DNA of 64,000 bases from a virus (Duplodnaviria > Caudoviricetes), in the IMG/VR virus record IMGVR_UViG_3300032221_000294, positions 1 through 64,000 of that record, one strand, 5' to 3'. The notes beneath the pieces are model-generated. The model was not told the origin of the DNA. It worked only from the letters and a program-made list of their open reading frames with translations, and did no database searches. A program made the position numbers and the translations under genes. Positions within the stretch are counted from its first letter, which is position 1. Each line of letters starts with the position of its first letter. This document shows positions 8,704-55,355 of the stretch, piece by piece.

Positions 8704-8883
8704 TTACCCCTTCGACTGGTAAACTCGGCCCATAAGCTCCTCACCAAATACCCGAAGATCCTGGTTTTTCTCCATGTTGCCAGCCATGATTGCCATGCGG
8801 CCAACTTCCCCAGGACCATCGGTTTTCATTGCTTCCTGAACGAATGGGTCGGCGAGGAAGTCTTTGATCGTCTGTTTGTTCAT
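8704..8883 (-). CDS. 59-aa protein coupled to tagged protein (candidate immunity)
   Basis: ATGA overlap; MNKQTIKDFLADPFVQEAMKTDGPGEVGRMAIMAGNMEKNQDLRVFGEELMGRVYQSKG. Confidence 0.6.
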   Translation of the reverse strand: MNKQTIKDFLADPFVQEAMKTDGPGEVGRMAIMAGNMEKNQDLRVFGEELMGRVYQSKG

Positions 8884-9776
8884 AAGAAAATGTCACCTGC
8901 GTTTACAAATACCGAATGGGATGCGTCAAGGAGTTTGTCAAATCCCGGGGTCGCTTCCATTTCTCTGTATTTAGTTATAAATTTCTTAACATCTGGGGCA
9001 TTCACGCCACTGTCAGTGTCTGCATAGTACAGGTTCTTGACTGGTTTTGGTATGTCCCCACGGCTTAACATAAACCCAATGTCGCGAGAGAAATACATTG
9101 ATAGATCCCTGTCTGTAAGGGTAGAGTTATCCCCCCTCGCTTTTAGGGCTGCCGCCCTATGAACCATGTTCACCAGAGTTTCTTCGGCAACAGTTGGACT
9201 TTTCGGGCCTTCACCAATCCAGTTCCCGATTTTATCGTCCCCCCCTAAGAATTCATGAACGAGGGCATGTACATTGTCGTGACTCCAGCTTAAGGTATGG
9301 GGGGTTGCTTCAAGGCCCGCTTTCTTTCGCCACGATTCTGCTTTTTTCTCTACTTCGTATATGTCAACGTTCTTGCCGGCCATGACGAGGTCTTTTGACT
9401 TCGCCCCCTTGTCTTCAACGGGTTTCGTCTCCTCCGTCCCTTTACGACACTTGCCTCCGGTACCATACGCAGTTCCGTTCGGTCGTACACATCGTGTAAA
9501 GTCAAGCGTTTCACTATAGCTAACTGTTTGCTGTGGCTGCGCCGGTTGCTGAGTGCACTTAGGTTTCTTCAGCTTTTGTTGTTGCTGTTGGAGTTGAGGG
9601 TCCGGCTGCGAAGCCTGTACCACCTTGGGTTGCGGAGGCTGAGGTGGCTGCGGGGGTGGTTTGGGCTGCGGGGGTGGCTTGGGCGGGCATGGCTCTGCTG
9701 CCGCCTGCCCTGGCTCTGCGTAGAGCATGGACGAAACTGCGTCAAGCGCCTCTTGAGAGAATCCAGAGATGTTCAT
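8880..9776 (-). CDS. Tagged modular protein (GFS.EAL leader, P/Q linker, DFTRC..YGTGGKCRKG tag, HDxxH domain)
   Basis: Motifs shared with 10099..10992, 53119..53841 and 54660..55355. Confidence 0.75.
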   Translation of the reverse strand: MNISGFSQEALDAVSSMLYAEPGQAAAEPCPPKPPPQPKPPPQPPQPPQPKVVQASQPDPQLQQQQQKLKKPKCTQQPAQPQQTVSYSETLDFTRCVRPNGTAYGTGGKCRKGTEETKPVEDKGAKSKDLVMAGKNVDIYEVEKKAESWRKKAGLEATPHTLSWSHDNVHALVHEFLGGDDKIGNWIGEGPKSPTVAEETLVNMVHRAAALKARGDNSTLTDRDLSMYFSRDIGFMLSRGDIPKPVKNLYYADTDSGVNAPDVKKFITKYREMEATPGFDKLLDASHSVFVNAGDIFL

Positions 9777-10099
9777 CCTAACATTCTCATCCCTTGAACT
9801 TCTTTGCTACTTCCGCCCTGCGGGTTGCCTGGACCCCGTGGGTATGAAGCTGGTGACAGCATTTCGCTATCCAGGTTTTCCTTGAGCTTACCTTGATCGC
9901 CGGGCTGCTTTCCGCGACGTGAGTCAATATCCGCGTTCAAGTTGGTGTTCCGCTTGAACCACGGGTCAGTTTCATAGTTTTGTTTATTGACAGGACCGCC
10001 TTTTCCCGTCTTAAACTGTTTTTCCCAATTAGGGTCAGAAAACTCTAACATCGCCGTTACTTCTAAGAGTGCCTCAGGCGAGAAACCAGGAATGTCCAT
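9773..10099 (-). CDS. Small protein with GFSPEAL...FSD leader
   Basis: N-terminus aligns with that of 8880..9776. Confidence 0.7.
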   Translation of the reverse strand: MDIPGFSPEALLEVTAMLEFSDPNWEKQFKTGKGGPVNKQNYETDPWFKRNTNLNADIDSRRGKQPGDQGKLKENLDSEMLSPASYPRGPGNPQGGSSKEVQGMRMLG

Positions 10100-10992
10100 C
10101 AGTCGTTTCCGTAATTGTCTCTGATGAACTGCTCTTGAGCCTTTATCCTTTCGTCGTACATTTTCATGACATTGCCGATCATCTCTTCACCTGCCCGGCT
10201 ACCGAACTGCTTCTTATAGTCGCTGGCTTCCCTTTTGAGTTCGGCCAGACCGTCGATAGACATATTACGAGGCGACGTTCCGATCATCTGCCCGTTAGGG
10301 CGTCTCACATCTTCCTCGTCTCTTCTCTTTGGCATCCCCTTAGTAAGACTCCGAATTGTATCGGTAGTTGTTCCACCTAGCTTTTGACGAGCGTCTGCGA
10401 CCAGCGAAATAAAGTCGGTATTTGCAGGAACTCCTTGACGAATCATCTCGGCAATTCTTTTGCGATCTGAGTTAAACCTTTTGTCAGAGAGAACGTCTGC
10501 AGCGATCTTTTCGCTTTTAGACATCTTCGGTGCACCCACCGTGTGGCTCTTTCCTGAACTATCAAGAATCTTTTCGCCTTTCGGTAGCATCCCGGCGAGT
10601 TGCTCCATGACGTCCTTTTCGTCGTCGCTTACTTCAGTACCCTTGCGGCACTTTCCACCCGTGCCGTAGCGAGAGCCATTCGGACGCTCACAAGTGGTGA
10701 AGTCGTAGTTTCCAGTTAGCATTGCGGAAACTTCTTGAGCCACGTCCTCTGAGTAGCCCATTGATGCCAGGCGCTCAGCATGATCCGAGTTTTTTCCTTT
10801 TGATTTTCCAGCCATCGATAGTGCGATCGCAATTGCTTGATCTTGTGATTTTACCACTTTTCCTTCCTTGCCGCCTTTTCCGCGACCGCTATGTAAAGAT
10901 TTGGGGTCGTGATGCTTCCAGCGATGCATCACCTGACCAACCTCGTCCTTGTGGGCAGACATAGGATGGCCTTCGGGCAATTCCTTAGACAT
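10099..10992 (-). CDS. Tagged modular protein (DUF6496-like N-terminus plus DFTTC..YGTGGKCRKG tag)
   Basis: VGQVMH.WK...LHSG...KVVKSQDQAIAIALS; GGGTAAAA at 11015-11022. Confidence 0.75.
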   Translation of the reverse strand: MSKELPEGHPMSAHKDEVGQVMHRWKHHDPKSLHSGRGKGGKEGKVVKSQDQAIAIALSMAGKSKGKNSDHAERLASMGYSEDVAQEVSAMLTGNYDFTTCERPNGSRYGTGGKCRKGTEVSDDEKDVMEQLAGMLPKGEKILDSSGKSHTVGAPKMSKSEKIAADVLSDKRFNSDRKRIAEMIRQGVPANTDFISLVADARQKLGGTTTDTIRSLTKGMPKRRDEEDVRRPNGQMIGTSPRNMSIDGLAELKREASDYKKQFGSRAGEEMIGNVMKMYDERIKAQEQFIRDNYGND

Positions 10993-10994
10993 AA

Positions 10995-11213
10995 CTATTG
11001 ATCTAGATCACCTATTTTACCCTCAATTTCCTTGACATGATCTCGCAACTGAGTTACCTGGTGAGCTAATTTAGCCATGATCGTAAGCGCCTCTGTCAGA
11101 AACTCTTCGACCTCCTCCCTTGAAAGTTCGTGTAACCTTCGTCTAACGGAAAGCACACGAAACTCTGACTCAAGGGGAAACGGTTTAACTTCAAAGTTCG
11201 TCTTGGAGTCCAT
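10995..11213 (-). CDS. nblA: NblA-like phycobilisome degradation adaptor
   Basis: 72 aa; PLESEF.V....L..LSREE..EFL......M matches the NblA helix-loop-helix pattern (LEQQF...MS..QA..FL...M). Confidence 0.6.
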   Translation of the reverse strand: MDSKTNFEVKPFPLESEFRVLSVRRRLHELSREEVEEFLTEALTIMAKLAHQVTQLRDHVKEIEGKIGDLDQ

Positions 11214-11868
11214 GGGCTATTGAGCGAAGGTCAAAGAATTTTTCTGCGGCATACTCTTTCTCCTCCTCACTCATAAAATCCCCGTCCACGTATTTCATTA
11301 GCATCATCATCTCAGCGTCTGACAAAGCACGAATCTGACGTATGAGACTAGGGCTTAGCAGAGTTGCTTTATGCTCCTCGAAGTTGTAAACAAACTCGGG
11401 TGTGGCCCAGTCCTCGGGTGAACTATCGTAAGACACATGATAGTTGTTCTCGGACATCTCGCAGTTGAGAACTTTACTTTCGTCCAGTCCTAGAATCTCG
11501 GCGATTTCCTTGTAAGTCTTACCCTCTTTCACTAGGTCGGCTACCTTGTTCCGGTAGTTGGCAATCCAGCGCGGCGTCCGCACCATGCGGGAGTAATCCC
11601 GAAGGGCGTGTTGAATGTAACCCCGCGCAGTGTTCCACGCGTAAGTGCTATACTTCACGTTCATTTCGGGGCGGTAACGAGTTGCAGCAACGCACAATGC
11701 GAATTTTGCTACGGACTCTAAGTCCTCCCGTGTCAGTGAACCTGTGTGACCCCCGGTTAAACACTTTGCCCCGTAGGCAAGCCTACCTGCGATCCAAGTG
11801 TGATCTGTGACAAGTTTCTGTTGCTCAGGCGTAAGCCTTGGGTACTTTTTGTTGCGACGACGTGTCAT
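11191..11868 (-). CDS. Sigma-70 family factor, SigB/SigF-like
   Basis: EDLESVAKFALCVAATRY.P....KYSTYAW...GYIQHALRD.SRMVRTPR; HTH YKEIAEILG. Start placed at MTRRRNKK. Confidence 0.85.
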   Translation of the reverse strand: MTRRRNKKYPRLTPEQQKLVTDHTWIAGRLAYGAKCLTGGHTGSLTREDLESVAKFALCVAATRYRPEMNVKYSTYAWNTARGYIQHALRDYSRMVRTPRWIANYRNKVADLVKEGKTYKEIAEILGLDESKVLNCEMSENNYHVSYDSSPEDWATPEFVYNFEEHKATLLSPSLIRQIRALSDAEMMMLMKYVDGDFMSEEEKEYAAEKFFDLRSIAHGLQDEL

Positions 11869-11869
11869 C

Positions 11870-13798
11870 TTAGGCTTCACAGGGGATGCATTCAGCATAG
11901 TTTGTTGTCTCAGTTTCTTGGGGGAATTCGGCTTTTTCGGTGTGAGCCATGAAGTCATTATAGCCGCCAATGTGCTTCTTGTATAGCCAAAGTTGAGGAA
12001 CTGTCTTCCAAGCAGGGTTCCAGTATCCTTTCTCTTCGGCTTGCGTTTTTGTAATCTCCTCGTAATGAATTCCGTCAGCTGCTAACGCGGATTTAAGTTT
12101 GTCACACCAGGGGCAATCCTCTTTGGTTACAATAAGAGCAGGTACAACTTTCAAGTTTGTCAACAGGGACGAGGACTTCAGATAGTAGAGTGATTTGAGG
12201 TTCATCTTCCATGCTGACAAGTGCAATCGCATGATATACGCTGCATCCGACTCCGGGTCAACTTTCAGATTAAGGGACTGACCCTGACAAATATAGGGCT
12301 GGCGGTCAGACGCTTGTTTGATTAGTTCAAATTGGTCAATCTCCTGAAAAGTCTTGAAAATTTCCTTCTCAACATCGCTAAGGCAGTCAAGGTCTTGCAC
12401 ACTTCCTTTTGCCTTTAGTACCTGTTCCCAGATGCTGTCGTCTATTCCGCGGTCGCAGAAGAGTTTCTCGAGAACAGGGTTTTTACGTACGTAGGTGCCT
12501 TTCGCTTGTTTGGCTACGAAATAGTTGGAGTCGATTGGTTCAATACCTTGGCTAAAAGCACCTGAAATGACAGAGTTTGTCCGGGTGGGAGCAACAGCAG
12601 TAAGGTGAGTGTGGCGCATGCCGGATCCCACGCACCATTCAGGTTCGCCAAATCGTTGTGCCAGCTCTCGTGAGGCAATCTCGGCTTGCTCTCGCACCCA
12701 TTGATGCGTCTCGATGTTAAGTTGCCGAGCGCCTAAGGAAGCAAAAGGCAATCCACGTTTCTGGTACAGCGTATGCAGACCCATGGATCCAAGACCTAGG
12801 GCACGAGATTTTTCTGCAAAGCGGACTGAGCGACCGAGACCCACTTTGTCTTTTGCCTTACGAACGAATTCGCTAACGACCGCGTCAAGGAGGTGAATCG
12901 CGAGTTGGGGGACTGTACGTCCTGTAATAGGAGATTTCCACCCACTAAACTCGTCATACCGACTAAGGTTGAGGCTGCTAAGGACGCAGACGAACGAATG
13001 ATGCTCATCGGTGTGCAGGAAGATTTCTGAACAAAGGTTGCTTGTTTTGACCGAGAGGCTGCGTTCGGTGTAGCACTCCGGGTTTTGCCGATTTGCGTTG
13101 TCAATGAAAATAAGGTAAGGCGACCCAGAGATCATACGAGTCTTCAGAACTTCTCCAAAGAGCTCTTGTTTTTCCAGATCTCCCCCAATCATTGACTCCA
13201 CCCACTCGTCAGTGATTGTAAGAGCAACGTTCGAATCGATGAACTTTCTGGGATCACCCTTTGTGTGGTCTTTGGTTCGAAGAAGTTCTGGAACGTCGGG
13301 ATGATCGATCGGTAGGTAAATAGCGAAGGAGCCACGGCGGACACCGCCCTGTGACACAACGCGAGCACACAGATCGTATTGCTGCGCCCAAGGAACTATC
13401 CCCGTGGACTTTCCGCCGCCTGTGATTGGGGCACCCGCAGGGCGAACGTCGCCAAAATAAACCCCCACACCGCCACCGTTCTTACTCAGCTGCGCGACTT
13501 CCTTAAGGTGTGAGTATATAGAGCTAACAGAATCGCTAGGGTGTACACTATAGCAAGAAATTGGCAGGGCCCTTGAAGTCCCAAAGTTAGCAGCAACGGG
13601 AGAAGCCAAACCCAGCCACCCATTCCAAAGGCAAGTAAAAAGATCGTCAAAGAGGGTTTCATCTTCGTTAATCACAGAGGCGGCGCGAGAGACTCGCTGA
13701 AACATCGCACGGGGGGTTTCCCCAGGCAGCAGATAGCCTGCGGACAGAGTGTGCATTCCTTCGTTGGAAAGCCACTCGGGGGCAATAGGTTCGGTCAT
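11870..13798 (-). CDS. nrdA: Class I ribonucleotide reductase alpha with internal glutaredoxin domain
   Basis: PISC, GGGVG, QGGVRRG, SNLCSEI, VAPT, KSLYY, then CPWC..TVPQ..IGGY and terminal CIPC. Confidence 0.95.
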   Translation of the reverse strand: MTEPIAPEWLSNEGMHTLSAGYLLPGETPRAMFQRVSRAASVINEDETLFDDLFTCLWNGWLGLASPVAANFGTSRALPISCYSVHPSDSVSSIYSHLKEVAQLSKNGGGVGVYFGDVRPAGAPITGGGKSTGIVPWAQQYDLCARVVSQGGVRRGSFAIYLPIDHPDVPELLRTKDHTKGDPRKFIDSNVALTITDEWVESMIGGDLEKQELFGEVLKTRMISGSPYLIFIDNANRQNPECYTERSLSVKTSNLCSEIFLHTDEHHSFVCVLSSLNLSRYDEFSGWKSPITGRTVPQLAIHLLDAVVSEFVRKAKDKVGLGRSVRFAEKSRALGLGSMGLHTLYQKRGLPFASLGARQLNIETHQWVREQAEIASRELAQRFGEPEWCVGSGMRHTHLTAVAPTRTNSVISGAFSQGIEPIDSNYFVAKQAKGTYVRKNPVLEKLFCDRGIDDSIWEQVLKAKGSVQDLDCLSDVEKEIFKTFQEIDQFELIKQASDRQPYICQGQSLNLKVDPESDAAYIMRLHLSAWKMNLKSLYYLKSSSLLTNLKVVPALIVTKEDCPWCDKLKSALAADGIHYEEITKTQAEEKGYWNPAWKTVPQLWLYKKHIGGYNDFMAHTEKAEFPQETETTNYAECIPCEA

Positions 13799-14775
13799 AC
13801 GAGGTTCAGGTCTAGCGTCTTAAGGTTAACACCCAGGAAGTCTTGAGTTGGTTTAGAAACGTAATTTCCCCCATCTTTTGACTGGGCAAAGAAGTCGGTA
13901 CTTGTTGCTCCCGCCATAATAGGGTGGAACCACGATTTAATGCGGTCTGCCGCGTCGTTGTCGACGTGAAATAAAGGAACGGAAGCCCCGAGTTCCGTCA
14001 ACCGCTCGTTCGCCCTCCAACGAAGGTATTGTTTTGCGTCGTGCAGGGTGATCGTGCCTAGAGTGCGACCTTTGAATATTTGGTCTAGGAAGGCTTCTTC
14101 ATTTCTCAACACGGCTTTAAATCCCTGCGAGATCATTCTGGCTTCGTCAGGTGTAAGCGGATCCTCCTTAACTAGCTGCCGGAAGAGTTCGATTCCCGTG
14201 TTGGAGTGCTGCTGCTCGTCAAGAGCCGACCAAGAAATGATTTGAGCGATTCCCTTGAAACGCCCAGTAAGGTTAAGGGATAGCAGAACAGCAAAAGAAC
14301 TGAATAGAGAAACACCCTCCCCAGCACCGCTGAACACAGCAAGAGACTCTTTAACTCCTCGACTTTCGAGGAAGTAGCCGATCTTTTGTTGGGCGATTGG
14401 GTCACCCAGGAATGCTTCAAATTCATCTAGCCCCAGTGTGTCGGAGAGAAGGTTGTAAGCCTCGGCGTGAACAATCTCAGAGAGGGAGAAAGCACGGGCA
14501 ACCGCAACGATTTCGTGTTTCGGAAACCAGTTCGGAATGTTCGCCCAGTAGTCACTCACATGGGTTTCAAGTTGAGTGAAACCTCTCAGGATTCCGCCAA
14601 TGATTTCTTTCTCGTCTTGTGACGCATTTTGCCAATCACGAATGTCGCTCTCGAGGGAAACCTCCTGAGGGCGCCACTGGGACGATTGAGCCTTGTGATA
14701 GGCTTCGAAAAACTCAGGGAATTCAAACTTCCCGTTCACTTTATACGGTTGTCGGTACTCGAGAATGCTTGTCAT
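13795..14775 (-). CDS. nrdB: Ribonucleotide reductase beta subunit
   Basis: W.PQEV....D..DW, EIVHAEAY, EGVSLFSSF, DEQQH, DFF. Confidence 0.95.
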   Translation of the reverse strand: MTSILEYRQPYKVNGKFEFPEFFEAYHKAQSSQWRPQEVSLESDIRDWQNASQDEKEIIGGILRGFTQLETHVSDYWANIPNWFPKHEIVAVARAFSLSEIVHAEAYNLLSDTLGLDEFEAFLGDPIAQQKIGYFLESRGVKESLAVFSGAGEGVSLFSSFAVLLSLNLTGRFKGIAQIISWSALDEQQHSNTGIELFRQLVKEDPLTPDEARMISQGFKAVLRNEEAFLDQIFKGRTLGTITLHDAKQYLRWRANERLTELGASVPLFHVDNDAADRIKSWFHPIMAGATSTDFFAQSKDGGNYVSKPTQDFLGVNLKTLDLNLV

Positions 14776-15364
14776 GCTGACGCTTTATACGTTTGGCTTC
14801 TTTTTCAAGAAGATATTGTTTACGCACGGGTTCGTGCTTTGTTTCATCCCACCAGTCTGGTTTCTCGCTGTAACGCCACTCGGCGTAACCTTTGTAACCG
14901 TTGATGTAGTTGCGGTACGCTGTAACTGCATCGCCGGGGATCTTGAACTCTTCTGGCATTGCTTGGACGAAGGGTGTGTGGGCGGACCAGCTCAAGTCAG
15001 GTTCGTGCCAATAAAGAAGGTCTGCAATCTGGTCTAGCCCTTGAGTTGTTCCGTGGACTTTTCCGTACCGGCGTGAATACTCTAGATTCATTTCCAAGGC
15101 ATGGCACAATAACCAACCAACATTCGCGGGACTTTCGTAGAGCCACTTTGCACAAGGATGGTGGGCAAATCCTTTGAGGCCGTAGTATTTTTTATCAGCG
15201 TCAAAGAGTTCCTTTTGCCCCGGCTTTTCGATTTTAACCCCATGCGCGTTGAAAGCCCACGGAGTCAGCAGTTGCAGCGACTCTGTAGGCATTTTGACGA
15301 TCAATTTATCGGGCAGATCACGAGCAGCAAGGCGAGGATCATCGTTGACAGCGAAAATGTTCAC
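14741..15364 (-). CDS. Pyrimidine-dimer DNA glycosylase family protein
   Basis: MNIF...DP..AA...DK..VKM..E..QLL, HPC..W, EY..RYGK.H, QAMP. Confidence 0.8.
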   Translation of the reverse strand: MNIFAVNDDPRLAARDLPDKLIVKMPTESLQLLTPWAFNAHGVKIEKPGQKELFDADKKYYGLKGFAHHPCAKWLYESPANVGWLLCHALEMNLEYSRRYGKVHGTTQGLDQIADLLYWHEPDLSWSAHTPFVQAMPEEFKIPGDAVTAYRNYINGYKGYAEWRYSEKPDWWDETKHEPVRKQYLLEKEAKRIKRQHDKHSRVPTTV

Positions 15365-15387
15365 GGTGGTTTGGAACAGGTAAGTTA

Positions 15388-15416
15388 AGTATAACAGAAA
15401 AAAGCACGCAGTAAAG
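15388..15416 (-). promoter_or_regulatory. Early-type promoter CTTTAC-N17-TATACT
   Basis: Precedes the glycosylase-nrdB-nrdA-sigma-nblA run. Confidence 0.6.
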
Positions 15417-15421
15417 GGCGG

Positions 15422-15622
15422 TTAACCCTCCATCTGTGCGTACTTCTCGAGTCGGTCGCGTTCGCGTTGGACCATTTCAAGGTAACCTTGCTGGAGCCTC
15501 TGAACTTCGCGCAGCTTTTCCCTTTCATGGTTCTGGGCGATTCGCCCGATGATCCAGAATAAACTCAGGTTGCCGAGAAGGGTACCGACGAGGGATCCAA
15601 CGGTGATTGCAAGAAGAGTCAT
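15422..15622 (-). CDS. Small membrane protein
   Basis: N-terminal TM segment followed by a charged helix. Confidence 0.6.
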   Translation of the reverse strand: MTLLAITVGSLVGTLLGNLSLFWIIGRIAQNHEREKLREVQRLQQGYLEMVQRERDRLEKYAQMEG

Positions 15623-15762
15623 TTCCCTTGGCCCTTGTACCTACGTTGCTTAGGACGAGAGGGAGTCGCCGCCAGATTGGTGTTACGGCTGCGGCCCTGA
15701 GCACTCATTTTCGGTTTGCTTTGAATTACTTGGGCACCCGCCGATGATTTCTGTTTCGCCAT
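15619..15762 (-). CDS. Small basic protein (47 aa, ends RRYKGQGK)
   Basis: MAKQKSSAGAQVIQSKPKMSAQGRSRNT...; ATGA overlap with the next gene. Confidence 0.6.
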   Translation of the reverse strand: MAKQKSSAGAQVIQSKPKMSAQGRSRNTNLAATPSRPKQRRYKGQGK

Positions 15763-16009: not shown

Positions 16010-16064
16010 GTGCCAGTAAGATGAGGAAAGCTACGAACGTTGTTGTGAAGACAACCTCAGTCAT
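15978..16064 (-). CDS. 28-aa membrane peptide
   Basis: MTEVVFTTTFVAFLILLAHAINHLSETF. Confidence 0.45.
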   Translation of the reverse strand: MTEVVFTTTFVAFLILLAHAINHLSETF

Positions 16065-16346: not shown

Positions 16347-16381
16347 CGTTGTTTGAGTATCAAGGTTAGTATAGGGTTAAG

Positions 16382-47403: not shown

Positions 47404-47451
47404 TTGCTAAGGAGCGAGTTGTGACGCGTAACGACGCTTCTACCTTTTACC

Positions 47452-47613
47452 CTAAAGGTAGGCTCCGCCGATAATCGCGTCTTCGCTCACTTCACCCTTC
47501 TCTCGCAGCTTCATGGCCGCTTCAAGATACAGGTCTGCCTTTTCGCCCAGCTCCTGCCTGCGCTCCTTGTAACGTGACATCAGAGCGATGTACTTCTCGT
47601 CGTGTTTACTCAT
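47452..47613 (-). CDS. 53-aa helical protein coupled to kinase (candidate immunity)
   Basis: TGATG overlap; MSKHDEKYIALMSRYKERRQELGEKADLYLEAAMKLREKGEVSEDAIIGGAYL. Confidence 0.65.
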   Translation of the reverse strand: MSKHDEKYIALMSRYKERRQELGEKADLYLEAAMKLREKGEVSEDAIIGGAYL

Positions 47614-49502
47614 CAAACCCCCTCGTAAAGAATCGAGATGTACTTTTGAGCCTGTTCATTAGTTAGTTTAGTCCAGACCCCCTGCTCGTAAGTCTCCATT
47701 GGCGAACGAATTCCGTGATCCATCACCGTGGCAATGTCGTCTTTGGAGAAACCATCCCGAAGCATCGCGAATTGAACGTCAGCTTTGTTTTGTTGAACTC
47801 TGGCGAGAACGGGAGCTTTTTCTTCGAGGTCTTTTCGTGCCCTTTCTGTTGACACGGGTAGAGCACCAGATTTCAATCTTGACTCGTAAATTTCGAGGAG
47901 TCGGCCAGCCGTCCCATCCCATCGACGAAGTTGCCAGTCTCCTTGTCCCGCAGCACCCATACCTCTTGTTGCCGAACCACCTTGTGGAGGCATAAACACA
48001 CCCATCGCTTCGGCCAAAGCGGCTTTTGGCGAGTCTTGAGCAAGACCCATGTCAACGAAACGGGCTTTACCTTTGCGGTCTACAAGAACGTTGTCGATGT
48101 GCATATCATTGTGAGCGATGCCCATCCGGTGAAGTTTTGCCCTAGCAACCCAATATGCGTCGGCAACTTTGACTCCGCCGATTTCTTTGTCGGGTGCTTT
48201 TGAACCGATAGGGCTTCCTGCAACCACGCTCATCGCCACGCGACCAATTTTCGTACCGGCGTTATACTGCGAGTCACCGTCAAGTTGAGCAGCAAGAAGT
48301 TTTGGCCCAAGGTCAACTTTTCCAAGACGGTCAATCAAGTCGGCTTCAATTTTACCGACTTCGCCCCTCTTGATGGCGTTTCCTTTGTTTGGCTCACGAA
48401 GAACGGTCCCGTAAGCACCTCTTCCGAGAAGTTTTGACCCCGACCCATAGGAATCTTCCCAGCGGTAAGACTTGCTTCCGAGCTCACGGGAAATCCCTTT
48501 GTTTATCATGTCACCGTCATGATCGCGAGCGTCTTCACGAGCGTAACGAACGTTTCCAGTTGCTTTTGTTTGTGGGCCTTTAATCGCCTCTTCCACAACT
48601 TTGAGCCGATCAACCAGCTTGTTGCGAAGCGCACCCGGTTTTACCTTTTGAACTTGCGATTTTAAGTTATTCCGCAAATTCCAGGCTTCTCCGAGAAGTC
48701 CCTCTAAGTCACGTCCAACTTCCCTACGAGTTAGAGCACCAAGTCCGAGAACGGATTGAAGCTGTGCGACTTGTGATTTGATTTTGACTCGCCCACTATT
48801 GTCGTCAATCATCGAGATATATCTCGGCGATTCGCCCTTCAAGAGGCGTGAAATATCATCCATTAAATCCTCGTCGGCCACTGTTCTCTTTACGGGGAGA
48901 ACCGTCCTTGTTCTTGCGCCTGGTGACTTATCAAGTTGCCGTGGTGGCAGAACTAACAAAGGCTTCTCGCTCGGGGTTTCTTTTCTGCGAGCTAACTCTC
49001 GGTCAATTCTATCTTTGGTATCCTGTAACACCTCCTTTTTCCCTGCCGGTGCTACTGAGAGACCTTTTCGGAATTTAACAAGAGCACTCGTATCCCATGC
49101 TCCGTACAGCTCGTCGGGTTGATTTTTTGCGTCGACAGTGGGTTTTTCAAAGGCTCGTTTAAATACATCCCCTAAGTTTGTTTCCGCCTTCGGTGCAGCG
49201 GCACCCCTTGCCGGTATAACACCAGCAGCAACTAAACGTCGTTTCAGTTCCCGTGCATCCTCGCCTGCGCGAATGTTCCTGCCAAGTTCCTGACGAAATT
49301 CCTTCTTGATTTTTTCAAATTGGGCGGCGCCACCGCGCTTTCCGCCCGCAGCAGCGGCTCGGTAGAGTTCAACAACCCCCACCTCATCTGAGGCTTTATT
49401 GAGAATGTTATTTACAGCTGTAGGGAAGTTAAGTCGGCAAGATTTTGCATTGCTGATGCAACCAGCCCCACACGCTTTACTGCGGCTGCACCTTTTTCTC
49501 AC
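47613..49502 (-). CDS. 4-Cys-tagged protein with C-terminal Ser/Thr-type kinase
   Basis: CSRSKACGAGCISNAKSC; LGRGAYGTV, AIKR, HNDMHIDN, VDMG. Confidence 0.85.
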   Translation of the reverse strand: MRKRCSRSKACGAGCISNAKSCRLNFPTAVNNILNKASDEVGVVELYRAAAAGGKRGGAAQFEKIKKEFRQELGRNIRAGEDARELKRRLVAAGVIPARGAAAPKAETNLGDVFKRAFEKPTVDAKNQPDELYGAWDTSALVKFRKGLSVAPAGKKEVLQDTKDRIDRELARRKETPSEKPLLVLPPRQLDKSPGARTRTVLPVKRTVADEDLMDDISRLLKGESPRYISMIDDNSGRVKIKSQVAQLQSVLGLGALTRREVGRDLEGLLGEAWNLRNNLKSQVQKVKPGALRNKLVDRLKVVEEAIKGPQTKATGNVRYAREDARDHDGDMINKGISRELGSKSYRWEDSYGSGSKLLGRGAYGTVLREPNKGNAIKRGEVGKIEADLIDRLGKVDLGPKLLAAQLDGDSQYNAGTKIGRVAMSVVAGSPIGSKAPDKEIGGVKVADAYWVARAKLHRMGIAHNDMHIDNVLVDRKGKARFVDMGLAQDSPKAALAEAMGVFMPPQGGSATRGMGAAGQGDWQLRRWDGTAGRLLEIYESRLKSGALPVSTERARKDLEEKAPVLARVQQNKADVQFAMLRDGFSKDDIATVMDHGIRSPMETYEQGVWTKLTNEQAQKYISILYEGV

Positions 49503-50011
49503 TTTGCGCTCTCCCGGTACTCTTGAAGTTTGGCTTCGAGCTCAGCGATACGGGATCCGACGGACTGAATATGCTCGGAATAGGAATCATCCTGGTTCAT
49601 AGTCCGATTGTAATCATCCATTTGCTTACGGCCAAGATCAAGAGTGGAAAGCTTCGCGTCGAGAGCTTCTTTCGCTTTAATCAGGTCGTGCATTTGCTTC
49701 ATCTGGGCTTGCAGACCTTTGAAATTTCCACGCATACGGGAGGTGCGCATCTCGTCTTGAAGCGAGTCAATGCGCATATCAAGCGATTTCTCTTGCTCAG
49801 CAAGGCTATCGTATTCCCCACCGTCACGAACGTTTTCGGGGAGAATCTCGCCAAAGCGAGAGTTGATCACAGACGTGTTCTCGGGCTCCATAACGGTTCC
49901 CCGAGCGTAATCTGTCGGTGTGTGGGAGTAATCAAGGATCTGATGCCCCCGCTCCGAATAAATTAAATAGGCTTGTTCGATAGCCTTTTCTGAAATGGAG
50001 TCTTTCCGCAT
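49499..50011 (-). CDS. Coiled-coil late protein (YSE motifs)
   Basis: GGGTAAAA at 50036-50043. Confidence 0.65.
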   Translation of the reverse strand: MRKDSISEKAIEQAYLIYSERGHQILDYSHTPTDYARGTVMEPENTSVINSRFGEILPENVRDGGEYDSLAEQEKSLDMRIDSLQDEMRTSRMRGNFKGLQAQMKQMHDLIKAKEALDAKLSTLDLGRKQMDDYNRTMNQDDSYSEHIQSVGSRIAELEAKLQEYRESAK

Positions 50012-50042
50012 GTCGAAAAGGAGACTTATACGTGATTTTACC

Positions 50043-50561
50043 CTATCTTGTGCCCTCTAGGGTCTTGCGGCCGATCTCGTTGATGGCCTGTTGCCGAGCC
50101 GAGCCGCTGGCATTTGGATTCGCTAAGGCCGCTGCTGATTGAGCAGGGGCTGCTGGTTGAACGTTTTTCGGTCGTGGCGATTGACTTGGTTTTACGGGTT
50201 TTGGACCCACTTTCTTTTCACCGGCGACTGAACCCCATTCAACAAGAACGGGTTTGCCACCTTTTACGGCCCAACCCATCCGCTTGCCGTTCACCATTAC
50301 GGGTTTGTTGCTCTTAACGTCCGAGCCCTGCTTCTTGGCTTCAGCTTCACCCGCTTCCTCTTGTTTGGTTTTCTTGCTGGAGTCGAAGTCCTTTTCACCG
50401 GTGCCGCCGCCAACTTTGCGGCAGACGCCGAATACCATCTTCTCGCCTTCTCCACAGCCTTGGCCGTCAGCGAAGTTCCAGTCGATAATTGTGTAGTGAA
50501 CACCTTCAATGAGGTGGTCAACTGAGGGAAAATTGAAATTGCTTTGCATGGGGATCACCAC
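50043..50561 (-). CDS. Basic late protein (FAD...C...GVCRK)
   Basis: Two-Cys module reminiscent of the YGTGGKCRK tag. Confidence 0.65.
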   Translation of the reverse strand: MVIPMQSNFNFPSVDHLIEGVHYTIIDWNFADGQGCGEGEKMVFGVCRKVGGGTGEKDFDSSKKTKQEEAGEAEAKKQGSDVKSNKPVMVNGKRMGWAVKGGKPVLVEWGSVAGEKKVGPKPVKPSQSPRPKNVQPAAPAQSAAALANPNASGSARQQAINEIGRKTLEGTR

Positions 50562-50866
50562 TTAACTTTGTTGGCCCAGTAGGAACCAGAGGAAGGACCT
50601 TTCGCGATGTTTTTTGCGTGCCGCGCTTTGAAAGCTTCGCGTCGCGCCTTGTAAGACTCCGACTCACCTTCTTTTTTCGGGGACCCTTTGACGCCAGCTT
50701 GACCGAAACGAATCAATTTTTCCTGACCGTCGTAACACGCTTTGACAACGTGGCTGTGTCCGCCTTGTGTGTCCGCCTGAGGCTTGTTACAAGCCAAGTC
50801 TGCCTTTTCGGCGTAGTCTCTACGAAACCGCTCAAGAACTCCCTCAAAGAAAGACCCCCACATCAA
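50555..50866 (-). CDS. DUF6321-like small basic protein
   Basis: KLIRFG..G...RR.AFKARH...S..YWA...W, after a WGSFFE...YAE leader. Confidence 0.65.
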   Translation of the reverse strand: MMWGSFFEGVLERFRRDYAEKADLACNKPQADTQGGHSHVVKACYDGQEKLIRFGQAGVKGSPKKEGESESYKARREAFKARHAKNIAKGPSSGSYWANKVKW

Positions 50867-51420
50867 CCTTCCTCCCCGAAGCGAATGAAATCACCGACGC
50901 TTGCCAGGGCGACTCCAGCGTTTGCAATCTTTGTAGCAGCCCACGGAGGCAGATTGTCTTCTTCGTCGAGCATATCGAGCATTATTTCGATCTTTTCTTG
51001 CGCAACACGAAGTTGGGTGATGATCATCCCGCCATTATTTTCACTGGACTGAAAAATTTCTGAGTAGGAGTTGTCGTTCGCTGAAGCATGCATCGCAAGT
51101 TGACCGTTTTTGTTAGCTGCCCTTTTAATGACTTCCATGCGGGGCATCCGAATCGGAACTCCTTCGTTCATCTGTGGGTTCTTTTCGTCACCTTCGCCTG
51201 GCTCTTCGGGCAGAAAGTTCGGTGTCATTTCTGCTGTGGCGATGTCACCTTCCCCATGTTTTGACTCGAGAGGAACGCAGTTTGGAACTGTTCGTCCGCC
51301 TTTCTTCTTCACGCCGACGGCGTGGTAGCCCTTCCAGCAGGCTTTCTTCAAGCACTCACGAGAATCTTCGGAGAACCCGAAACCTTCGAGTCTCTCCCAA
51401 TCGTAGTTGTTAGGGTTCAT
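50863..51420 (-). CDS. Modular cyanophage protein (CWKGY...VPNCVP and NLPPW..TKI modules)
   Basis: Each module is preceded by FSE or YSE. Confidence 0.65.
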   Translation of the reverse strand: MNPNNYDWERLEGFGFSEDSRECLKKACWKGYHAVGVKKKGGRTVPNCVPLESKHGEGDIATAEMTPNFLPEEPGEGDEKNPQMNEGVPIRMPRMEVIKRAANKNGQLAMHASANDNSYSEIFQSSENNGGMIITQLRVAQEKIEIMLDMLDEEDNLPPWAATKIANAGVALASVGDFIRFGEEG

Positions 51421-51682
51421 GATCTGTGATCCTCCGGTGTAGTAGATCTTTCTGAATGTCTTCGACCTTTTCCGACAACCGAATATGATCTTCCCGAAGA
51501 GTGTACTTGATTGGCAGGTCCGTTCTCAGGTTATCGAGAACCGACTCCATCTTCTCCATATGGCGGATAATAGTTCCAAAACGGTCGTCGATTCGCTTTC
51601 CATTTCGTTCAAGAACCCAGCCAATTCCGCTAACGGAGGTGACAATAGACGCTAGAATACTTAAGATAGCTACGGGTTCCAT
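51410..51682 (-). CDS. TM plus coiled-coil protein
   Basis: Start placed at MEPVAILS. Confidence 0.6.
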   Translation of the reverse strand: MEPVAILSILASIVTSVSGIGWVLERNGKRIDDRFGTIIRHMEKMESVLDNLRTDLPIKYTLREDHIRLSEKVEDIQKDLLHRRITDHEP

Positions 51683-51683
51683 A

Positions 51684-52391
51684 CTACTCCGGCAAACCTG
51701 ATTGACCTGAAGCAAGCCGATCTTTCACGGATTGCGGTAAGCCCGACTCCCAGCCGTTCTTCTTCGCGATGCGAATGATGCTAGCCATAATTTTGCGAGG
51801 ATTTTTTCCTCGCCCTACCGAAGACCAGGCGGCAGCAACGTCTTCCGGGCTCGAGATTGGAAAAGACATATCAGGGCCGGCAAATTCACCCTTGACTGCC
51901 CCGGCTTTGAGCTCTTCGCGCTTTCCGGTGCTCCACTCGCGGTACTCGGCTGCTTTGCGTTTCTTGTCACGGCAAACTGGGCAAGATCCTCCGCATTCGC
52001 ATTCGGCCATTGCGAAAGGTTGCGCAATTGCGAGAAGCTCGGTGTCCTGAGAATCGCCCTCGGCGAACCCGTACTCGGCCCTTTTCATTTCCTTAAACGA
52101 AGCCATCCGAGATTTCTTGCGGTCGAAAATCTCTTTCATGGCCTTATTGCCATCGCAATTTTCGTTGTAATTTCGGTTGACGAGACTAGTACGCTTTTCG
52201 CGATTTGCAGCGTTCAACTTTAGAACACTTTCGTTGTGGTGAGACATTCCACCGGTAATGTCGGGAGACCATTTCTTACCGGAGGCGTTCATTTCTTTCA
52301 ACCTGTCTACGCTAATTGCGTTCGAGGCGTTGATGTTACCGCCTACACCAGGAAGCGAAACGTCGGAGAAATCTAGACGGGATCCGTACAT
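51684..52391 (-). CDS. Late protein with Cys cluster and C-terminal FPI...DV.AA...GR domain
   Basis: CECGGSCPVC; GGGTAAAA at 52417-52424. Confidence 0.65.
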   Translation of the reverse strand: MYGSRLDFSDVSLPGVGGNINASNAISVDRLKEMNASGKKWSPDITGGMSHHNESVLKLNAANREKRTSLVNRNYNENCDGNKAMKEIFDRKKSRMASFKEMKRAEYGFAEGDSQDTELLAIAQPFAMAECECGGSCPVCRDKKRKAAEYREWSTGKREELKAGAVKGEFAGPDMSFPISSPEDVAAAWSSVGRGKNPRKIMASIIRIAKKNGWESGLPQSVKDRLASGQSGLPE

Positions 52392-52428
52392 ATAGGAGGC
52401 AGTGGCAATACTTTCCTTTTACCCTTTA

Positions 52429-52746
52429 TTAGGGACTCTCCGATTCGTTGGTGGTTTTGCGACGACGAGTTACTTGCTCGACCTCTGCACCGGCAGCAGG
52501 TTCTGCGGGAACTAAAAGGGCCAGCAGGGTAGTTAATGCCAGTTTGCCAGTTTCGGCGAAGCTTGAGTTCGCCTGAGCGCAAACTAAGTTTGTTTTCTCC
52601 AGTTCGGCTGGGCTGCTTGAAAGTTTGAAACAGGTGGCAAACTGTGCGCCAGTGGACGCGAATTGAACTATGAAGATAGCAACGAGGCTTCGAATCAGAA
52701 AGCGGCGCTCGTTGAAGCTACTCGTAGTCTTCGTCAGCAGGCTCAT
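52429..52746 (-). CDS. Two-TM small membrane protein
   Basis: Two hydrophobic segments. Confidence 0.55.
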   Translation of the reverse strand: MSLLTKTTSSFNERRFLIRSLVAIFIVQFASTGAQFATCFKLSSSPAELEKTNLVCAQANSSFAETGKLALTTLLALLVPAEPAAGAEVEQVTRRRKTTNESESP

Positions 52747-53080
52747 TGTCCTCTTCCATTGAGAGTTCGCTTAGAATTTCATTGACAAGGGCGTCAACCT
52801 CGTCTTCAGTTAGTTCCTCTTCCTCGTCGGACTCTTCCTCCTCGTAGTAGGATTCCGGTTGGAAGGGTTGCTTCAGATCGTCATCGGGACCTTTTCCGCT
52901 CGGATAGCGCCAAAGGCCAGTATGCTCGATCCAAGGGGAAGTGTTTGAGATTTCGCCAGCAGGGAGACCGGTTCGGGTGTCCATATCCTGGTCTTCCGGA
53001 GTCATCAGTTGAGCGGCATACGCAGCGCGGAATGCTTCAACGGCGTCCATGTCGAAATCGCCACCAATTCTGTTGGTCAT
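52718..53080 (-). CDS. Acidic late protein
   Basis: GDFD.DAVEAFR leader; GGGTAAAA at 53109-53116. Confidence 0.6.
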   Translation of the reverse strand: MTNRIGGDFDMDAVEAFRAAYAAQLMTPEDQDMDTRTGLPAGEISNTSPWIEHTGLWRYPSGKGPDDDLKQPFQPESYYEEEESDEEEELTEDEVDALVNEILSELSMEEDNEPADEDYE

Positions 53081-53118
53081 TTGTTAGTTGTAATGGAACT
53101 TGAAGAAATTTTACCCGC

Positions 53119-53841
53119 TCAGGCCGCCCCGAAAAACCGGTAATTCCCCTCGTCGTCCTCGTAAATAGATCCCTCGTAAGCGTCTGTCCCCCTAGTAATT
53201 GCCTCGACGTCTTTGTCGGTCCACCCCAACACTTTCTTCAGAACTTTTTTTGGTACCGTAGCTGCAAGATCATCGTAGGAGGCGTTTTTGTCAACGTATT
53301 TCTGTAATTTCGGGTGCTCCATAACCCTTTCGATGGCCTCGTCAACTCTTGATGGTAATCCAGCCTTGGCGAATTCGCCGAGTGCTTCTTGCTTTCTCTT
53401 CTTTCCCGTATCCTTGGTCACACCCCCTGGCCCGTAAGTGTTATTTTTATGCCCGTATAGACTTGACTTGTACGCGTCAGCTTCTCTGCGTCTTTCCCTT
53501 TCACCGGGCGTCATATTCCCCCTGGTATCGCCCTTCTTATAAGGTTCACGCGCACGACCAGCAGCGTTCGCTGCGAGTTGGTCATACATGGCTTTTCTTT
53601 CAGGTGTTTGATTCTTTTTCTGACGTGCCAGTTTCGCTGCTCTTTCCGCTACTTTGGCTGCTGCGCCTTTGGTGGATTCTACACCTTTGCGGCATTGCCC
53701 TCCCGTGCCGTAGATAGACCCGTCGGGTCGCATACATCGGGTGAAGTCGTAGCTCTCTCCCTCGGAGAAATCCGCAGATTGTGTTTGTGAAACCATCTCC
53801 GAATACTGGAGGAGAGCCTTTTCTGAGAAAGAACCTAGCAT
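53119..53841 (-). CDS. Tagged modular protein (GSFSEKAL...DFSE..YDFTRC..YGTGGQCRKG)
   Basis: First ~55 aa homologous to 54660..55355; own GGGTAAAA at 53865-53872. Confidence 0.8.
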   Translation of the reverse strand: MLGSFSEKALLQYSEMVSQTQSADFSEGESYDFTRCMRPDGSIYGTGGQCRKGVESTKGAAAKVAERAAKLARQKKNQTPERKAMYDQLAANAAGRAREPYKKGDTRGNMTPGERERRREADAYKSSLYGHKNNTYGPGGVTKDTGKKRKQEALGEFAKAGLPSRVDEAIERVMEHPKLQKYVDKNASYDDLAATVPKKVLKKVLGWTDKDVEAITRGTDAYEGSIYEDDEGNYRFFGAA

Positions 53842-53872
53842 GATACTAAAGTAATCTGCTCAAGTTTTACCC

Positions 53873-54319
53873 TTAGCGTTTCTTGATCTTGCCCGAGATA
53901 TCTTGCCCCATCTTGCTATTGCCCATGAGCTTTTCTTCGTACTCTTTAACTTCCTTTTTGACATCTGCCTTGAGTTTACCTTCCTGAAGCATTTTTTCCT
54001 TCTTAGACTCAAGGATTTCAGGGTCGTAGGGGGCATTCTTCTCTCGCTCTTTCTTCGCCTTTTCCTTGCCCTTCTGCATTGTTTTCGCAGTTTGCTCACG
54101 CTTGGCAAGTTCTTCTTTGTGAACGAGTTTCCCTTCTTCGTCAAACTTGTGGTCTTTTGGAAGCTCGGGGGGAGTGTACTCTTGGTGAATTTCCTGCGCC
54201 AGGCGATCAAGAAGTTGGTCGTACGAGTCACGCAGGCGCCGTCTGCAAACGCCGGCAGCAGCCACAGTCATCGGGCCACAGGGAATCCTGTGCTGAGTAA
54301 TTTCTTCGAGTGCGTTCAT
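53873..54319 (-). CDS. Lys/Glu-rich protein (C...GVCRRR)
   Basis: Start placed at MNALEEIT. Confidence 0.6.
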   Translation of the reverse strand: MNALEEITQHRIPCGPMTVAAAGVCRRRLRDSYDQLLDRLAQEIHQEYTPPELPKDHKFDEEGKLVHKEELAKREQTAKTMQKGKEKAKKEREKNAPYDPEILESKKEKMLQEGKLKADVKKEVKEYEEKLMGNSKMGQDISGKIKKR

Positions 54320-54320
54320 G

Positions 54321-54656
54321 TTAGGCTCCTTTTCTTTGGCGAATGCGACCGTCGTTGTGCTCGTCGTAGTGAACTCCCTTCCTCTTTTCCTTGCGGGGGT
54401 TTGAGTCCTGACGATTTGTTTCCCGCATCGACTGAACCATTGTGTCGCGCATGTTGCGAAGTTGCTCACGCGGCAGAGTGCAATGATCGCTGTCACGATA
54501 GGAACGATACCAGCGGCAAACTTCCGACGGGTCGTCAGCCTGGAGCATCATATTCCACACCCCGAGTGCTTGCGCATCGGCTAGGGTGCCAGGCTTGAGT
54601 TTGGCCTCAATTTCGTGCCGCTCGGGGCGATTGAATCGGGTGTCTTTGCGCATCAC
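54321..54656 (-). CDS. Hypothetical protein
   Basis: Tightly spaced ORF. Confidence 0.6.
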   Translation of the reverse strand: MMRKDTRFNRPERHEIEAKLKPGTLADAQALGVWNMMLQADDPSEVCRWYRSYRDSDHCTLPREQLRNMRDTMVQSMRETNRQDSNPRKEKRKGVHYDEHNDGRIRQRKGA

Positions 54657-54659
54657 TGA

Positions 54660-55355
54660 TCAGAGTTTTCCTATTTGCCATTTAATACCGACGTCACTAG
54701 TCCACGGATGCACGACTGTATATCCGTCTTTGGTTTTCTTTACTTGAAAATTATCGCCTCCTTGCTTCTTATTAAGAGCGTTAGCAAGCTCTTGAGCTTT
54801 GTTTTTGGGGAAAATTAAAGAATCGGACGAACGCTCTGACGAAGTTCCTTTTGAACTCTTCTGTCCCTTACCCGCAAGCTGAGCCAGAGCATTTTTAGCA
54901 TAGCGGGAAAAGGAACCTTTGGCCCCATCTTCTTGATAACGATCTGAAGCATTATCGAGAGCACTAACGAGTTTTTGTTTTTGTTCGGGGTTTAATTTTA
55001 GGCCCAGTGCTTTTTCTAACTTGGGTGCGAGTGTCTCCCCGGCATACCCAGGGGTGGAATCTGACTCTCCGTCCTCAAAGGCCATAAACGCTTTGTCCCA
55101 AGCCTTATACAAACCATCTACGATTTTGGCAGCATCTTTCTTTGGTCCACCCGACGCTCTCTTCGCTTTTTCTTCAATTTCTTTAGCGCCTTCCGTGCCC
55201 TTTCGGCATTTACCCCCAGTGCCATACGCCGACCCGTCGGGTCTCACGCAACGGGTGAAGTCGTAGGTATATCCTTCAGAGAAATCCGCAGCTTGAGTCT
55301 GAGCCGCAAGTTCTGCGAAGTGACGCAAAGCGTCTTCAGAAAAATGACCGTTCAT
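54660..55355 (-). CDS. Tagged modular protein (GHFSEDAL...DFSE..YDFTRC..YGTGGKCRKG)
   Basis: Start placed at MNGHFSED, 21 nt after GGGTAAAA 55377-55384. Confidence 0.8.
   Translation of the reverse strand: MNGHFSEDALRHFAELAAQTQAADFSEGYTYDFTRCVRPDGSAYGTGGKCRKGTEGAKEIEEKAKRASGGPKKDAAKIVDGLYKAWDKAFMAFEDGESDSTPGYAGETLAPKLEKALGLKLNPEQKQKLVSALDNASDRYQEDGAKGSFSRYAKNALAQLAGKGQKSSKGTSSERSSDSLIFPKNKAQELANALNKKQGGDNFQVKKTKDGYTVVHPWTSDVGIKWQIGKL

Follow-up and report, generated by a model that had tools for sequence, protein, structure and literature searches.

The tagged genes and their common module

Four minus-strand genes of this large, cyanophage-like virus, A to D, encode proteins with a 24-residue C-x13-C module, DFTxCxRPxGxxYGTGGxCRKGxE, and lie in the window, the whole 64,000-nucleotide stretch of viral DNA that was analysed (Table 1). 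A degenerate DNA pattern matched exactly these four sites in the 99.5-kb contig and none when reversed as a control, and the family profile recovered all four at E 1.7e-21 to 2.8e-19, confirming the near-identical copies listed by a first-pass annotation of this DNA. As that annotation had also noticed, [FY]SE stands ahead of every copy, at differing distances (6, 18, 8 and 8 residues to the first cysteine). Genes B and A and the 108-aa gene between them abut or overlap, which suggests a single transcription unit.

Table 1 Tagged genes, module copies and promoter-like motifs in the window
Feature	Position	Strand	Description
Promoter-like motif GGGTAAAA	55377..55384	-	21 nt upstream of gene D start
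Gene D	54660..55355	-	Leader helix, DFSEG, module, basic 176-aa cargo without assigned fold
Leader of D	55263..55355	-	Residues 1-31; predicted helix 7-20, then DFSEG
Module copy D	55191..55262	-	Residues 32-55 of 231-aa protein; profile E 2.5e-21
Promoter-like motif GGGTAAAA	53865..53872	-	23 nt upstream of gene C start
Gene C	53119..53841	-	Leader helix, DFSEGES, module, basic 185-aa cargo without assigned fold
Leader of C	53749..53841	-	Residues 1-31
Module copy C	53677..53748	-	Residues 32-55 of 240-aa protein; profile E 1.7e-21
Promoter-like motif GGGTAAAA	11015..11022	-	22 nt upstream of gene B; heads the run B / 108-aa gene / A
Gene B	10099..10992	-	DUF6496, YSE helix, module, LPKGEKILDSSGKSHT block, C-terminal domain
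Module copy B	10633..10704	-	Residues 97-120 of 297-aa protein; after DUF6496 and YSE helix
108-aa gene between B and A	9773..10099	-	GFSxEAL leader helix present, module absent
Gene A	8880..9776	-	Leader helix, linker, YSE, module, 183-aa cargo
Module copy A	9432..9503	-	Residues 92-115 of 298-aa protein; after leader helix and Pro/Gln-rich linker

The C-termini of the four proteins gave no match to each other (best BLASTP E 0.05) and have pI values of 5.9, 8.7, 9.6 and 9.4; the earlier description of a different basic or variable domain after each module thus holds for their unrelatedness, but for basic character in three of the four only. The cargo of gene A recurs as the second cargo of another protein, P0141, behind a tagged NMNAT, and gene D has about 10 full-length relatives.

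Pairwise identity among the four modules was 75-92% in protein and 65-74% in DNA. Each pair has 18-22 identical residues, with different codons at 6-18 of them, and because identical residues so often use different codons, selection acts on the module as protein; purifying selection, not recent duplication, had been proposed from the outset. The window copies conform to a family signature, [DE][FY]xxC-x13-C[RK][KQ]G, in which the places of G, YG and G are also fixed. Invariant throughout the family are two Cys at a fixed 13-residue spacing, a Gly and a Tyr, with no invariant His; the net charge of the module is +2, and paralogous tags inside one genome have lineage-specific residues in common. 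The weaker variants noticed previously did not hold up: C-x11-C strings exist in 50043-50561 and 53873-54496, but the family profile detects neither even at E<=10, and on that ground, together with their spacing, we do not count them as members.

Pfam and PHROG scans of the four proteins, and Pfam scans of 84 relatives, gave no match covering the module, a PDB sequence profile search returned nothing real (best E 0.07, over 11 residues) and an ESM Atlas search gave no usable matches. The module therefore coincides with no characterised domain of other function in Pfam, PHROG or PDB; such a match would have counted against the first-pass annotation. AlphaFold2 (AF2) modelling of leader plus module from 84 sequences reached a mean pLDDT of 65.6, with the leader helix alone confident; the module obtained no confident fold (pLDDT 57-68). 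For a tagged NMNAT, the enzyme was modelled at about 90 pLDDT and the tag at 36-51, with the module not docked on the NMNAT domain. With only two invariant Cys, the module falls short of four metal ligands in one chain. Because AF2 yields no confident module fold, the chemistry of the cysteines is a guess: they probably form a disulfide that closes a loop of 15 residues, or else hold a metal in common with a partner.

A family of variable cargos in one phage clade

A profile search of 1.84 billion representatives found 957 clusters at E<=1e-3, nearly all of them viral and from one clade of large phages with Mu-like heads. Genomes carry up to 15 tagged copies, and five related contigs gave 6-15 profile matches each. 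A Mu-like portal 56-95% identical to that of the window virus was present in 11 of 12 tag-bearing contigs longer than 85 kb. The portal, protease and sheath of our contig match those of Synechococcus phage S-CBWM1, which was also the sole match to the tag among 50,697 phage records and is the only cultured member of the clade; among 185,579 genomes searched, only two MAG contigs matched.

In 217 relatives, leader and module are held in common while the C-termini differ, and in most collected matches the module starts no later than about residue 45; two modules are present in some proteins. The C-termini were sorted into at least 61 groups, a figure that is approximate because a mixed group of 77 persists under stricter clustering (a first clustering had merged 140 proteins through low-complexity K/A/E-rich linkers). 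Cargo types include ADP-ribosyltransferases (PF03496/PF01129), kinase-like domains (APH/ABC1/Pkinase) and a cytidylyltransferase/NMNAT fold, and many tagged cargos are non-enzymatic, being short, basic, Lys-rich tails. The annotation had pointed to a profile search as the way to reveal cargo diversity, and the search did so; its picture of a portable module on unrelated cargo also stands, with the module nearly always near the N-terminus and the C-termini variable. Tagged genes form co-directional arrays, the largest with eight genes in 12.9 kb, fusion and fission fall exactly on the F[SA]E/module boundary, and identical cargo is found behind different partners.

Links to head genes and virions

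With 2.7 occurrences expected, the window contains 21 copies of the promoter-like motif GGGTAAAA. The portal, protease, tail-fibre and tape-measure-like genes each have it 21-50 nt upstream, as do the tagged genes D, C and B, and its placement is the same in S-CBWM1 and in a 277-kb relative (G001). Since it is also found ahead of a PhoH-like gene and, in S-CBWM1, of an endolysin gene, it marks a regulon and not strictly virion proteins.

A second link is the F[SA]E flank that the module usually follows (missing in 75 of 318 distinct modules). The motif occurs six times in the head protease/scaffold protein against 0.54 expected, three times in D and twice in C, so that these proteins hold 11 of the 23 occurrences in the contig; it is absent from the C-terminus of the S-CBWM1 NMNAT. 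Coding-strand F[SA]EG is confined to the protease, to C and D and to one neighbouring gene of the cluster, with YSEG once, in a tail fibre, and the segment FGTL[EDN]F[SA]EGET is kept in all six related protease/scaffold proteins examined. Leaderless natural variants start 9-11 residues before the first Cys, approximately at the end that cleavage behind F[SA]E would create. The sequences are thus consistent with a maturation cleavage that would expose the module at a new N-terminus, as had been suggested.

The protease adjoining the portal is Mu-like (PF10123), not T4- or phiKZ-like; PF03420 (gp21-type, Peptidase_S77) had no match in the contig, although the control genomes were equally without a match. 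We also considered whether the G-x-E after the module could be a cleavage site of the phiKZ type (S/A/G-x-E), and decided against it because the protease is Mu-like, because no more than 274 of 318 modules have the Glu (Gln, Pro or Arg replacing it in others) and because the motif enriched in the protease/scaffold protein is F[SA]E.

The tie to virus particles comes through S-CBWM1. Its NMNAT starts MLGHIDPAVLDYVLTLDFTRCERPDGTAYGTAGTCRKGVE and so carries the module, in a tag-NMNAT layout conserved in seven relatives, and two papers citing the original study (Xu et al. 2018, Environ Microbiol 20:2974) list this NMNAT in the virion proteome. On the word of those papers, a tagged orthologue is virion-associated, and to that extent the prospect that these are non-virion proteins, which the annotation had itself raised, is not borne out. 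Because swappable enzymes follow the module and one of them is reported from S-CBWM1 particles by the citing papers, the module most likely labels cargo carried by the virus into its host. The APH and ChoK kinases of S-CBWM1 have a sister 4-Cys tag. The second tagged protein of S-CBWM1, gp165, has no annotation beyond 'hypothetical', in contrast to a neighbouring gene called 'virion structural protein', and may have gone undetected in virions. The 'Rio2' of the citing papers, which we assume to be the S-CBWM1 gene annotated as PknB-like, has neither Cys tag within its first 110 residues. The 'second addressing module' first proposed is thus supported in part, as a portable, N-terminal element with indirect virion ties (the S-CBWM1 NMNAT as reported by the citing papers, GGGTAAAA and the protease motif) and a putative role in packaging.

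Proposed capsid targeting, rival readings and known systems

A phage that injects enzymes alongside its DNA can reprogram the host ahead of all phage gene expression. To our knowledge, very few signals for loading such cargo are known: the T4 capsid-targeting sequence (CTS), MuF domains and giant-phage propeptides. We favour, at a rough probability of 0.55, the reading that the module forms the constant portion of a tag at the N-terminus that addresses polymorphic phage proteins to the virion, probably to the capsid interior, from which they would enter the host with the DNA. Tagged and structural genes would be transcribed together from a phage sigma-factor promoter. The flexible tag ([DE]F[SA]EG, then xxYDFTRC-x13-CRKGxE) would dock on a prohead-internal partner, possibly the one that the protease/scaffold protein binds through its conserved FGTLEFSEGET segment, or the protease itself, and cleavage of the leader after F[SA]E might place the Cys loop at the new N-terminus. 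The cargo ejected with the DNA would include ADP-ribosyltransferases, protein-kinase-like enzymes, NMNAT-like nucleotidyltransferases and many small basic proteins.

A more specific form of this proposal is one that we put forward tentatively. Loop and F[SA]E together could be a portable and sufficient capsid-loading signal of mostly uncultured 140-280 kb cyanophages, mimicking the protease/scaffold segment (as a capsid-binding or cleavage segment) and loading up to about 15 interchangeable effectors per genome. The Cys pair would serve as a redox or metal latch, holding cargo in the oxidised virion and freeing it in the reducing host cytoplasm, and the arsenal would pair NAD-making NMNAT with NAD-using ADP-ribosyltransferases.

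It is unlikely, in our judgement, that the module acts instead in the host cell, as a docking or localisation peptide that draws different enzymes to one host hub (such as the incoming DNA, RNA polymerase, the ribosome or a membrane site), with virion association otherwise determined. The cargo domains (ADP-ribosyltransferase, kinase and NMNAT) do modify host molecules, and a module of charge +2 followed by Lys-rich tails could, judging from composition, bind nucleic acid. A kinase reported from virions by the citing papers also lacks a Cys tag over residues 1-110, provided that its gene is rightly identified. These points have to be set against a promoter-like motif common to tagged and structural genes, a flanking motif common to the head protease/scaffold protein and to no host-like protein, and a family limited to one phage clade that is defined by head genes; the lineage-specific residues of paralogous tags would fit any common partner, host or phage.

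That the module is a metal- or disulfide-stabilised element for oligomerisation or regulation, for example keeping toxic enzymes inactive or paired, with no addressing role, seems to us quite improbable. Such an element would leave unexplained the N-terminal position bias and the link to the protease motif, AF2 leaves the module undocked on the NMNAT domain, and many cargos are short basic tails that need no inhibition. In its favour are the invariant Gly, Tyr and Cys pair at 13-residue spacing, the occurrence of two modules in some proteins, and a hint that chains may share a Zn site, two Cys being too few for the usual four ligands. We give very little credence to a module that is mainly a recombination handle, with little function of its own, for swapping cargo cassettes among tandem genes. 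The co-directional arrays (up to eight genes in 12.9 kb), the breakpoints exactly at the F[SA]E/module boundary and the same cargo behind different partners are all what it would predict, but a DNA identity of 65-74% is too low for homologous recombination and most synonymous sites have changed. Recombination or gene conversion as the cause of module conservation is largely refuted, since synonymous sites have diverged.

If capsid targeting is correct, the tag would be a compact, easily recognised loading signal from which virion-borne effectors could be read in metagenomes (about 1,000 clusters being visible), and it would account for the presence of kinases and NMNAT in cyanophage virions. 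With only 30 residues needed to bring foreign proteins into a cyanophage capsid, the tag would also be a useful tool, and S-CBWM1 with its Synechococcus host offers a culturable test system.

We class the tagged proteins with a known kind, the capsid-targeted polymorphic effectors. In T4, the CTS is found on IPI-III and the ADP-ribosyltransferase Alt, late-made cargo that is loaded into the prohead and co-ejected with DNA (PMC7411985, PMC5512222). Like it, the present tag is short, lies at the N-terminus and heads unrelated cargos, ADP-ribosyltransferase among them. The T4 CTS, however, has ~10-20 residues and no cysteines, attaches to the gp22 core and is cleaved off by gp21 after (L/I)-x-E, whereas the tag here is a 24-31 residue C-x13-C loop in a phage with a Mu-like protease, and its sequence offers F[SA]E instead.

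The MuF (SPP1 gp7/Mu gpF) polymorphic toxins of temperate phages likewise join a conserved head-associated N-terminus to C-terminal domains, toxins or effectors, that vary greatly (PMC5576092, PMC5512222). Our phage shares with them a constant N-terminus, variable C-termini (at least 61 groups) and a Mu-like portal and protease. Phage_Mu_F (PF04233) had no match in the four proteins, 84 relatives or the contig, although control genomes did give matches; the tag is five to ten times smaller, up to ~15 tagged genes occur per genome against one for MuF, and no immunity genes were established.

In SPN3US and phiKZ, many head-internal proteins have N-terminal targeting propeptides that the prohead protease cuts, and the protease has its own C-terminal targeting segment (PMC7411985), to which FGTLEFSEGET is comparable here. 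Those propeptides are family-specific, 100-130 residues long and cleaved by a gp21-type protease at a T4-like motif, in contrast to the one short common module and other protease family described here. Polyvalent proteins of phages and conjugative elements, in an account that makes no mention of cyanophages or conserved cysteines, are predicted to accompany DNA and act early through their effector domains (Iyer et al. 2017). They too have ADP-ribosyltransferase, kinase and nucleotidyltransferase domains, but with many effector domains per long chain, whereas the proteins described here mostly combine one tag with one cargo and are spread over many genes.

Module copies in the window

The first-pass annotation had described a 24-residue two-cysteine unit, DFTxCxRPxGxxYGTGGxCRKGxE, in four proteins, and this module is present in four genes at exactly the coordinates it gave. 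The minus strand carries nearly all window genes, and a degenerate DNA pattern placed GTGGxCRKG at only these four sites in the 99.5-kb IMG/VR contig containing the window (46% complete by CheckV estimate).

Genes A–D and their two-cysteine modules (window coordinates)
Feature	Gene	Strand	Module	Basis or remark
Tagged gene A	8880–9776	minus	9432–9503	module sequence match
Tagged gene B	10099–10992	minus	10633–10704	module sequence match
Tagged gene C	53119–53841	minus	53677–53748	module sequence match
Tagged gene D	54660–55355	minus	55191–55262	start is the ATG at 55355, not the upstream TTG

Pairwise identity of the copies was 75–92% in protein and 65–74% in DNA, with codons differing at 6–18 of the 18–22 identical residues per pair, which agrees with the earlier description of near-identical protein and differing synonymous codons. 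Because identical residues use different codons and the DNA is only 65–74% identical, the peptide is under selection and the copies are old. The C-termini were likewise found to be unrelated (best BLASTP E value among post-module regions, 0.05); the pI values of these regions are 5.9, 8.7, 9.6 and 9.4. No named domain was found in the four cargos; Pfam matched only the N-terminal part of gene B, as DUF6496. The proposed ‘weaker variants’ did not hold up: they are C-x11-C strings that the family profile misses even at E ≤ 10.

Genes C and D share a palindrome-like 13-nt string over the R-P-D-G-S codons, GACCCGTCGGGTC (plus strand; 53717–53729 and 55231–55243). The corresponding codons in A and B differ from these, and the string is probably a codon coincidence.

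Module family and cargo

Searching with residues 1–70 of gene D retrieved 217 relatives, nearly all laid out as a leader (M-x-G-x-F-S-E-E-A-L ... D-F-[SA]-E-G-x-x-Y-D), the module from residue 36 and then unrelated sequence. From 72 modules we built a profile of 37 columns; against 1.84 billion representatives it matched 957 clusters at E ≤ 1e-3 and, at the stricter E ≤ 1e-10, 638. Both cysteines, three glycines and a Tyr-Gly pair are invariant, and the Cys-x13-Cys spacing is ungapped in all aligned modules. Of 318 distinct modules, 316 have G directly after C[RK][KQ] and 274 have G-x-E there. The module starts within the first ~45 residues in most collected cases; some 20 proteins carry a second one internally, and a quarter of modules lack F[SA]E. 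Natural leaderless variants start 9–11 residues ahead of the first cysteine, and the earlier idea of a loop at or near the N-terminus therefore fits. Searches of Pfam, PHROGs and the PDB gave no family that covers the module.

In AF2 models only the leader helix was confident, the module having a pLDDT of 57–68. The model of a tagged NMNAT, whose enzyme part matches NMNAT/NaMNAT/PPAT structures, reached ~90 pLDDT in the enzyme but only 36–51 in the tag, so the tag is predicted to be a flexible appendage. Any role for the two cysteines is a guess.

The C-termini of the 217 relatives fall into roughly 61 groups. Identifiable cargos are ADP-ribosyltransferases, APH/ABC1/Pkinase-like kinases and cytidylyltransferase/NMNAT, and many of the remainder are short K/A/E-rich basic tails. 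Tagged NMNAT orthologues (alignment A4; P0006, P0141 and L016:8149–9714) end in NEF[SNA]E, followed by either a stop or a second module and second cargo, that of P0141 being homologous to the cargo of gene A; genes thus fuse and split at the module boundary.

Distribution and promoter-like motif

The module occurs at 118 places on 71 IMG/VR loci, most densely as eight co-directional tagged genes in 12.9 kb. Among five relatives searched, a 277-kb contig (98% complete) had 15 profile matches and the others 6–10. Synechococcus phage S-CBWM1 (Aokuangvirus) is the sole carrier among 50,697 phage records, with two such genes, and across 185,579 prokaryote genomes the module was found only on two short MAG contigs. 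Eleven of the 12 tag-bearing contigs >85 kb encode a Mu-like portal 56–95% identical to that of our contig, and the family is restricted to one phage clade. The head genes of the contig are of the Mu-like kind, with Portal_Mu, Mu-like_Pro and a capsid protein of the lambda E type. What the contig shares with S-CBWM1 is a sigma factor, the sheath, the portal, the protease and two head genes further downstream. In both genomes the sigma-factor gene, whose products are 56% identical, adjoins the ribonucleotide reductase large-subunit gene (window 11191–13798).

A promoter-like motif, GGGTAAAA, was seen 21 times in the window (2.7 expected) and 28 times on the coding strand of the whole contig (1.3 expected). 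Genes with the motif 21–50 nt ahead of their starts encode the portal, the protease, and tail-fibre and tape-measure-like proteins; tagged genes D, C and B have it at this distance too, and B is the first of a run with a 108-aa gene (9773–10099) and A. A PhoH-like gene and, in S-CBWM1, an endolysin gene are also preceded by it; none was found just upstream of the contig's RNR, sigma-factor and terminase genes. S-CBWM1 has the motif ahead of the tagged NMNAT, gp165, portal and protease genes, and the 277-kb relative shows the same association with tagged and structural genes. The shared motif suggests that these two kinds of gene are regulated together. In the PhoH-like gene (window 57246–58184) the motif falls at 58095–58102, internal to the longest ORF; an ATG at 58067, 27 nt further on, may be the true start, giving 273 aa.

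Reported virion link and proposed reading as an address tag

The S-CBWM1 NMNAT (HOU61_gp158) has the module at its start, an arrangement kept in seven relatives, and two citing papers report, at second hand, an NMNAT in the virion proteome of this phage together with APH, ChoK and Rio2 kinases (PMC10665884, PMC9602691). The APH kinase bears a sister 4-Cys tag, and 19 in-frame codons upstream of the ChoK gene encode the same tag. If the Rio2 kinase is the product of the gene annotated as PknB-like, its first 110 residues contain neither of the Cys tags; the tagged gp165 is annotated only as hypothetical. For the ChoK-like gene (HOU61_gp036) the annotated start seems too late: the upstream codons, directly after a stop, encode MGKNCSKGKSCGSACVNRT (S-CBWM1 locus L005:8926–8982; NC_048106 about 117830–117886). 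The 4-Cys tag is also found on window genes 6864–7688, 47613–49502 and 55393–57240.

The most economical account is that the module is a putative address tag by which a polymorphic set of effectors would be loaded into virions. Such a system would resemble the CTS carried by T4 IPI–III and Alt, giant-phage ejection-protein propeptides and MuF-fused toxins. Capsid-targeted, injected effectors that are polymorphic behind a constant N-terminus are known already; the C-x13-C tag itself has no name in Pfam, PHROGs or the PDB, and our literature search found no paper dealing with such a tag.

How such a tag might act is suggested by the contig's 799-aa Mu-like protease/scaffold protein (contig 79376–81775, outside the window; L006:15376–17775). 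This protein has F[SA]E six times against 0.54 expected, each time in the C-terminal half; with three in D and two in C, these make 11 of the contig's 23. Near its C-terminus, FGTL[EDN]F[SA]EGET, here FGTLEFSEGET, is kept in six of six related proteases examined and resembles the tag's DFSEGE[ST]. Judged from sequence, the common [DE]F[SA]EGE segment may be where the Mu-like protease cuts; equally, tag and protease/scaffold protein may share it for docking. Tags within one genome have lineage-specific residues in common, yet differ in codon at ~60% of identical residues; this hints at a common partner, and shared ancestry could also account for it.

A DUF6496 head together with a YSE helix is common to gene B and S-CBWM1 gp153 (L005:1111–1734). 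Because gp153 carries two different Cys loops (about C-x10/11-C) where B has the module, different loops seem interchangeable there. The small neighbouring genes 50863–51420, 51684–52391 and 50555–50866, for which no Pfam match was found, carry further short Cys motifs (CWKGY...VPNC, CECGGSCPVC) as well as a basic tail, ...YWANKVKW; 51684–52391 also contains GFAEGD.
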